Shown here: piece after piece, positions 19,709 through 19,923 of the stretch
Layout of the letters: each line of letters opens with the position of its first letter
How positions within the stretch are numbered: the first letter of the stretch is position 1
Program-made: the position numbers and the translations under genes
The notes under the pieces: model-generated
Databases searched by the model: none
Told to the model about the DNA's origin: nothing
Seen by the model: only the letters and a program-made list of their open reading frames with translations
NCBI RefSeq assembly: GCF_024700885.2
Contig: NZ_CP117016.1
Strand: one strand, 5' to 3'
DNA from: Escherichia coli
GTDB taxonomy: Bacteria; Pseudomonadota; Gammaproteobacteria; Enterobacterales; Enterobacteriaceae
Length of the DNA stretch: 64,000 nucleotides

Positions 19709-19812
19709 TTTTTTCCCTTAAATTCATCTGACTTACGCATAGTGATAAACCTCTTCTTCGCAAAATCGTCATGGATTTACTAAAACATGCATATTCGATC
19801 ACAAAACGTCAT

Positions 19813-19890
19813 AGTTAACGTTAACATTTGTGATATTCATCGCATTTATGAAAGTAAGGGACTTTATTTTTATAAAAGTTAACGTTAACA
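19813..19890. promoter_or_regulatory. divergent cscK/cscA promoter region with two identical palindromic operators (putative CscR sites)
   Basis: AGTTAACGTTAACA occurs twice (19813-19826 and 19877-19890); core GTTAACGTTAAC is a perfect 12-bp palindrome, as expected for a LacI-family operator. Confidence 0.45.
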
Positions 19891-19923
19891 ATTCACCAAA
19901 TTTGCTTAACCAGGATGATAAAA

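Follow-up and report, generated by a model that had tools for sequence, protein, structure and literature searches.

Gene content and setting of the csc locus

The window, by which we mean the whole 64-kb stretch of DNA that was analyzed, carries the csc genes cscB, cscK, cscA and cscR. On the minus strand, cscB (17475-18722) encodes a LacY-like MFS sucrose/H+ symporter (NCBIfam TIGR00882, E = 1.1e-178) and cscK (18794-19708) encodes a fructokinase (NCBIfam NF006957, E = 3.5e-152), the latter being the first gene of the divergent cscKB operon. The plus-strand gene cscA (19924-21357 with the RefSeq start) encodes a sucrose hydrolase, a GH32 invertase (NCBIfam TIGR01322, E = 5.6e-143), and is followed directly by cscR on the minus strand (21365-22360), whose 331-amino-acid product shows LacI-family matches of a repressor and whose real start is M67 of a longer open reading frame. 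A mechanical ORF call begins cscA at the ATG at 19915 and RefSeq begins it at the ATG at 19924, which has an AGGA 8 nt upstream. The names cscK, cscA and CscR used in the original prediction are supported by these NCBIfam and LacI-family matches, and the limits it gave to the region between the divergent genes, 19709-19923, hold as well, with the start codon of cscK reaching to 19708 and the cscA ATG of RefSeq at 19924.

The argW gene for tRNA-Arg(CCT) (16959-17033) lies just beyond cscB, and on the other side a gap of some 480 bp separates cscR from dsdA (22839-24167), a setting identical to that published for the E. coli csc island, from argW to the dsdX/dsdA side (PMC3032704; PMC11251922). 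RefSeq annotates this gap as a truncated dsdX in a sister strain, and dsdC-dsdX was absent from the cscR-dsdA side of the window (22361-24167 examined). Sucrose-positive/D-serine-negative is a known, mutually exclusive pattern, and the presence of the csc genes without dsdC-dsdX predicts that this strain should be sucrose-positive and D-serine-negative. The intergenic DNA between cscK and cscA is 100% identical to that of E. coli strain 1190, and 2662 of the 5426 complete E. coli genomes carry it at no less than 95% identity (range 95-100%).

Two identical palindromes in the cscK-cscA intergenic region

The 215-bp intergenic region (30% GC) contains both copies of the exact 14-mer AGTTAACGTTAACA present in the 64-kb window, at 19813-19826 and 19877-19890, and an exact sequence search confirmed these positions and the 64-bp distance from start to start as originally described; a 50-bp gap separates the two. 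The two copies have different neighboring bases on either side, which limits the repeat to exactly 14 bp. It is palindromic at 12 of its 14 positions (six of seven pairs), and its 12-bp core GTTAACGTTAAC (19814-19825 and 19878-19889), which had been called a perfect palindrome, does equal its own reverse complement, has a central CG, and can also be read as the 6-bp palindrome GTTAAC repeated in tandem. We refer to the copy centered at 19819/19820 as the distal operator, which presumably corresponds to the "cscKB operator" of the literature, and to the copy centered at 19883/19884, which precedes the cscA ATG by about 40 bp, as the proximal or cscA operator; neither is assigned a strand.

A lone perfect 12-bp palindrome would be unremarkable, given that the 64-kb window contains 16 of them against about 15.6 expected and that at least one was present in 11% of dinucleotide shuffles of this AT-rich intergenic region. 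Two or more arose in 0.67% of the intergenic shuffles and an exact 14-mer repeat of any kind in only 7 of 20,000, and the occurrence of the same 14-mer twice is far beyond chance. No other site within two mismatches of the 14-mer was found elsewhere in the 64-kb window. With a PWM from 26 other species, whose training set did not include the window, both sites scored 26.4 of 28.9 bits, and nothing else in the 64-kb window reached 8 bits. A search for the same palindrome upstream of cscR/cscB had been suggested in the original prediction, and here the result was negative, with no extra site of 8 bits or more in the 64-kb window and none within two mismatches in 17000-23000. A further perfect 12-bp palindrome, TAACGATCGTTA, lies at 20061-20072 inside the cscA coding sequence (...FNDRYH...); its coding position and the lack of a CscR motif match (PWM below 8 bits) indicate that it is most likely due to chance.

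The palindromes are the known CscR operators

These palindromes are the known CscR operators of the csc control region, and their detection from the letters is a correct rediscovery that adds no new feature. According to PMC11251922 and PMC3938415, Jahreis et al. (2002) identified two 12-bp inverted repeats in the cscA-cscK region as putative CscR operators, and mutation of a csc operator de-represses or raises csc expression and permits growth on low sucrose. A recurrent mutation in the cscKB operator led to growth on low sucrose (PMC3938415), and an operator mutation raised cscA expression (PMC11251922). In the published layout, both operators flank the -35 and -10 of the cscA promoter, the downstream one lies over the transcription start, a Crp-cAMP site adjoins the -35, and the control elements are kept in five species (PMC11251922). 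The csc promoter has further been described as bidirectional with two cAMP-CrpA sites, with both transcription units under CscR and cAMP control (PMC3938415). Repression by CscR, de-repression by operator mutation and dependence on cAMP-CRP are therefore matters of published record, the last in both papers (PMC11251922, PMC3938415). CscR is also among the LacI-family sucrose regulators of a comparative regulon study, which presents binding-site logos in its Figure 5 (PMC4052901). The discovery value of the sites is low, since sites, repressor and catabolite control alike date from a 2002 description and were taken up again in 2013 and 2024.

The CscR protein itself agrees with this assignment. 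Its HTH (SLKDVAxLAxVS(M/L)MTVSR) and its hinge (YVPDxSAxKxR) hardly vary among 74 homologues, even where overall identity falls to 48%, and such a near-invariant DNA-reading head fits an invariant operator. The closest solved structure is PDB 6ndi ("Transcriptional regulator", 334 amino acids, E = 1e-113), to which CscR aligns over residues 1-330; this structure could serve for modeling how CscR binds its effector and oligomerizes. As far as length and alignment show, the 331-residue CscR ends at the LacI-family core (...RVTRIPCPLLIRCST) and lacks an additional C-terminal helix. Among named NCBIfam models, CytR scores best for CscR, at 137 bits against a cut-off of 436. The original attribution of the palindromes to CscR thus agrees with the published one and, on comparative grounds, is further favored by the almost invariant DNA-reading head and by the presence of the palindrome in nearly all of the 73 loci described below. 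The sites also have what is expected of LacI/GalR-family operators, namely a palindrome in the usual range of about 14-20 bp with a central CG and outer positions of the TG...CA type, a promoter location near the regulator gene, and a footprint conserved together with the DNA-reading residues.

A rigid operator-CRP cassette across species

Our scan for CscR, using one genome per species, yielded 73 loci with homologues 48-96% identical, from Escherichia, Citrobacter, Pluralibacter, Tatumella, Pectobacterium, Samsonia, Rahnella, Rosenbergiella, Providencia, Proteus, Klebsiella, Raoultella, Enterobacter, Serratia, Kosakonia, Yersinia, Gilliamella/Orbaceae and Aeromonas. The original prediction had turned in part on whether other csc loci carry the repeats, and GTTAACGTTAAC, with zero or one mismatch, is present in the intergenic DNA beside the csc genes in nearly all of the 73. 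Across species the ideal site reads TGTTAACGTTAACA, a palindrome of 14 bp. The window and 44 other loci, 45 in all, have the two operators 62-64 bp apart, the distance being 64 bp in 38, 63 bp in six and 62 bp in one. We stacked these 45 loci, reduced them to 27 sequences less than 80% identical, and observed that information is near maximal in both operators, which form the highest columns, high in a block between them that corresponds to CRP site 1 (the second highest), moderate in CRP site 2, and about zero elsewhere.

The distal operator core is invariant in 43 of the 45 tabulated loci, and both operators are invariant in the E. coli/Citrobacter alignment. About 28 Klebsiella/Enterobacter-type loci have GTTAACGTTACC as the proximal site while the distal one stays GTTAACGTTAAC, and in Aeromonas the same asymmetric change is seen in both operator copies. 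Across all gene orders, the proximal core lies 15-52 nt before the ORF start of the first gene of the cscA-containing operon, with a single Aeromonas locus (L059, 146 nt) as the sole outlier. The neighbor on the distal side varies: it is cscK in E. coli, Citrobacter and Pluralibacter, cscB in Rosenbergiella, and cscR in Klebsiella, Enterobacter, Raoultella, Serratia, Yersinia and Aeromonas.

CRP sites and the cscA promoter

CRP site 1, TGTGATATTCATCGCA (19829-19844, no strand assigned), lies between the operators and has one mismatch to TGTGA-N6-TCACA; its cross-species consensus is TTTGTGATTAaCATCa. At this fixed offset, 43 of the 45 loci match with at most three mismatches (background 0.3%) and 37 of the 45 with at most two (background 0.04%). 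CRP site 2, TGCATATTCGATCACA (19788-19803, likewise unstranded), has three mismatches; the left half is weak, and the right half (TCACA) is strong and conserved and always ends 10 nt before the distal operator core; at its own fixed offset, at most three mismatches were counted in 40 of the 45 loci (background 0.3%). Measured from center to center in the window, CRP site 2 is 24 bp from the distal operator, the distal operator is 17 bp from CRP site 1, CRP site 1 is 47 bp from the proximal operator, and the two CRP sites are 41 bp apart.

A scan of 19650-19980 for consensus sigma-70 promoters and terminators returned no matches. From conservation and CRP geometry, we infer that the cscA -10 element is TATTTT (19865-19870, plus strand), which falls within CTTTAT(T/C)TTT (19862-19871), a stretch that is invariant in the E. 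coli/Citrobacter alignment. The alternative -10 candidate, TATAAA (19871-19876), varies in Citrobacter and is less likely than TATTTT. With this -10, cscA transcription would start near 19877/19878, at the first bases of the proximal operator, in agreement with the description in PMC11251922, and CRP site 1 would then be centered at about -41 in a class II-like position.

Departures from the cassette

Several lineages depart from this layout. The operators are 68-69 bp apart in Proteus and 57 bp apart in Gilliamella, and Providencia has a single site. In seven Providencia loci (L011-L016 and L063), cscA and cscK are divergent and share one perfect TGTTAACGTTAACA, with no second site at up to four mismatches except doubtful ones; a different, GC-rich inverted repeat, such as AACGCACGCGTT, is found on the cscA side and might be a site for another regulator. 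Nine Gilliamella/Orbaceae loci (L027, L032, L033, L038, L040, L043, L045, L064 and L070) carry CscR-type sites in two places, as the pair 57 bp apart between cscA and cscK and as a tight pair in the cscB-cscR interval, spaced by 14-20 bp. This arrangement implies autoregulation in this group, with what would be a different cooperative geometry. In the two Tatumella loci (L006 and L061), the operators are kept 62-63 bp apart although both CRP sites are degenerate (5-8 mismatches of 10), which suggests that catabolite control may have been lost and the operator pair retained.

Two further loci appear to have been rearranged. The metagenome-assembled Enterobacteriaceae UBA3516 (L053) has a single operator at about 7859-7872, and the sequence next to it is the downstream flank of a Klebsiella-type proximal site; this looks like a 64-bp deletion through recombination between the direct-repeat operators, a step that would have removed CRP site 1 and the core promoter. 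In E. coli UTAK-5 (NZ_CP157152.1; L081), an IS100 element (istA/istB, 1113-2914) lies inside the cscK-cscA intergenic region, with a breakpoint that corresponds to about 19773 in the window, between cscK on one side and CRP site 2 and the distal operator on the other. This insertion parts cscKB from the whole control cassette, and cscKB expression is probably altered.

A probable model: two operators in one promoter cassette

Taken together, we think it probable that the palindromes are two CscR operators built into one rigid cassette, chiefly that of the cscA-operon promoter. Its elements run in the order CRP site 2, distal operator, CRP site 1, weak -10 and proximal operator, and it would belong primarily to the promoter of the cscA-containing operon. 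Each palindrome presumably takes one CscR dimer, in the manner of other LacI-type sites of 14-16 bp that have CG at the center, and CscR on the proximal operator, over the likely cscA start, would block RNA polymerase. The distal operator fills the 19-bp gap between the two 22-bp CRP sites, which would place it at about -58 from the cscA start and, on the guess that CRP site 2 is of class II for cscK, at about -65 from the cscK start. CscR bound at this site would most likely hinder CRP-dependent activation, either by occupying the DNA on which the alpha-CTD docks or by crowding CRP. Such interference would affect both divergent promoters, and no operator other than the distal one is available to the cscKB promoter. 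Upon release of CscR by a sucrose-derived inducer, cAMP-CRP would activate both promoters.

The original prediction had assigned one dimer site to each divergent promoter, so that the distal operator would independently serve PcscKB and the proximal one PcscA, as the names used in the literature also imply. This claim is supported only in part. The proximal site lies at or near the likely cscA start. The distal site is indeed the nearer one to cscK, and control of both transcription units by CscR and cAMP (PMC3938415) is compatible with an operator for each. However, the distal site is upstream of each of the two promoters and sits between the CRP sites; seen from cscK it is even upstream of CRP site 2 and thus unsuited to simple occlusion of polymerase. 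No operator is present where a mirror image of the proximal one would fall, 47 bp past CRP site 2 toward cscK, and the window has no further site. The pair is kept at 62-64 bp where no divergent catabolic operon exists, as in Rahnella laticis and Tatumella ptyseos, whose co-directional upstream gene leaves no room for a divergent promoter, and in Pectobacterium and Samsonia, whose divergent gene is unrelated and more than 230 bp away. Conversely, seven Providencia species have divergent cscA and cscK yet a single operator, and in the published account both operators flank the cscA promoter and the operator mutation raised cscA expression (PMC11251922). Since the twin sites persist whatever the distal neighbor, and Providencia manages with one operator, the twin arrangement is better seen as a property of the cscA-side cassette than of divergence, and we consider a strict division of the two operators between two promoters to be doubtful.

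The constancy of the spacing raises the question of whether the operators are bound cooperatively, with the DNA of about 64 bp (six turns) looped and bent by CRP inside the loop as a compressed version of lac O3-CAP-O1. A distance of 62-64 bp in 45 loci from several Enterobacterales families and Aeromonas, of which 63-64 bp amounts to about 6.0-6.1 helical turns, would suit such a loop, as would the operator-CRP-operator order shared with lac and the retention of 62-63 bp in Tatumella despite decayed CRP sites. A constant spacing is nevertheless expected without any loop, because each operator is tied to a fixed promoter element (CRP site 1 and the start point, respectively). CscR also appears, from its length and alignment to 6ndi, to be without the LacI-type C-terminal tetramerization extension; the 68-69 bp of Proteus (about 6.5 turns) and 57 bp of Gilliamella (about 5.4 turns) would put the sites on opposite helix faces; and the inter-site distances favored in a LacI-family survey were 13, 22 and 32 bp (PMC4052901). 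We therefore judge looping to be unlikely. A repressing CRP-CscR-CRP complex, in which distal CscR contacts the flanking CRP dimers in the manner of CytR anti-activation, is in our estimate very improbable. It would account for a distal operator set between two CRP sites at rigidly kept distances (24 and 17 bp, with the CRP sites 41 bp apart), and CytR is the best-scoring named NCBIfam model for CscR, but that match is far below its cut-off (137 against 436 bits) and reflects LacI-family membership only. CytR promoters, moreover, have their CRP sites about 52-53 bp apart and the csc operator is a perfect palindrome of the high-affinity type; the 19 bp left between the 22-bp CRP sites makes steric competition at least as likely as cooperation; and Tatumella keeps the operator without the CRP sites.

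That the repeats are not protein sites at all, and represent instead an RNA hairpin, a DNA cruciform, the ends of a mobile element or chance in AT-rich DNA, has a negligible probability. The copies are complementary, 19805-19900 folds as RNA at -26.6 kcal/mol (z = -5.7), and a repeat search reported 19-nt inverted arms 44 nt apart; yet a strong fold is the trivial outcome of two identical palindromes, and no Rfam family matched the region at E of 1 or less. Variants between species are uncompensated, as GTTAACGTTACC at the proximal site is accompanied by an unchanged distal site and the asymmetric change in both Aeromonas copies breaks the pairing between them, and with the likely cscA start at the proximal site no single transcript is expected to span both copies. 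A recent mobile element, to which the 19-nt inverted arms might point, and chance are both excluded by conservation in more than 60 species, the CRP site between the copies and the diverged flanks.

Returning to the reading of two CscR operators in one cscA-side cassette, Tatumella places a constraint on the distal site. Because this genus keeps the operator pair with degenerate CRP sites, the distal operator cannot act solely through CRP, and the comparison hints that the site may have some CRP-independent role. We offer only tentatively the more specific proposal that the distal operator is not dedicated to cscK but a shared element of an ancient cassette, at which one CscR dimer between two class II-type CRP sites shuts off CRP-dependent activation in both directions, by covering the alpha-CTD docking DNA or by crowding or contacting CRP, and that the cassette moved intact between gene orders in Enterobacterales, Orbaceae and Aeromonas.

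Comparison with known systems

The csc control region of E. coli EC3132/W (Jahreis et al. 2002; Sabri et al. 2013; Stephens et al. 2024, PMC11251922) is the same locus with the same elements. As in the window, it has two 12-bp inverted repeats, two cAMP-CRP sites, and divergent cscA and cscKB, and the element in the window is that element itself without any difference. The present addition is comparative detail, namely the geometry of the cassette in about 45 species and four or more gene orders, the lineages with one operator or an altered spacing, and the lack of an operator upstream of cscR in E. coli; it is modest and lies in the breadth and rigidity of conservation and in the finding that the twin arrangement is not tied to two divergent promoters. 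The csc regulon is a standard module for sucrose growth of industrial E. coli strains, in which slow csc induction at low sucrose is usually cured by cscR deletion or operator mutation, and exact operator and CRP positions within one fixed cassette should allow cleaner promoter replacement and design of operator mutations.

Like scrY of pUR400/Klebsiella (Cowan 1991; Jahreis and Lengeler 1993, as cited in PMC11251922), the csc locus is a sucrose regulon under a LacI-family repressor. At scrY, that paper describes two 14-bp inverted repeats for ScrR that flank the -35 and -10, the downstream one over the start, with a CRP site upstream. ScrR and CscR belong to separate orthologous groups with different motifs (PMC4052901). 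In addition, the two scr operators both lie downstream of the CRP site, which is poorly conserved (PMC11251922), whereas CRP site 1 of csc lies between the operators and is highly conserved in our footprint.

The csc cassette resembles the lac promoter in having a LacI-family repressor with an operator at the start, an auxiliary operator upstream and a CRP site between them, and in combining repressor and catabolite control. The lac promoter has O3 at -82, CAP at -61.5 and O1 at +11. Its operators span 92 bp against the 64 bp of the csc cassette, in which the CRP position would be class II-like, a second CRP site lies past the auxiliary operator, the operators are perfect and match each other exactly, and CscR appears to be without the LacI tetramerization tail. 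CytR/CRP promoters such as deoP2 likewise have a LacI-family operator between two CRP sites. There, however, the distance between CRP sites is about 52-53 bp, and the operators are weak, degenerate and bound in a CRP-dependent manner, in contrast to the 41-bp CRP spacing and perfectly palindromic CscR operator of csc. If the distal operator is indeed shared by both promoters, it would represent a repression geometry between those of lac O3/CAP and CytR/CRP, as a refinement of a known system.
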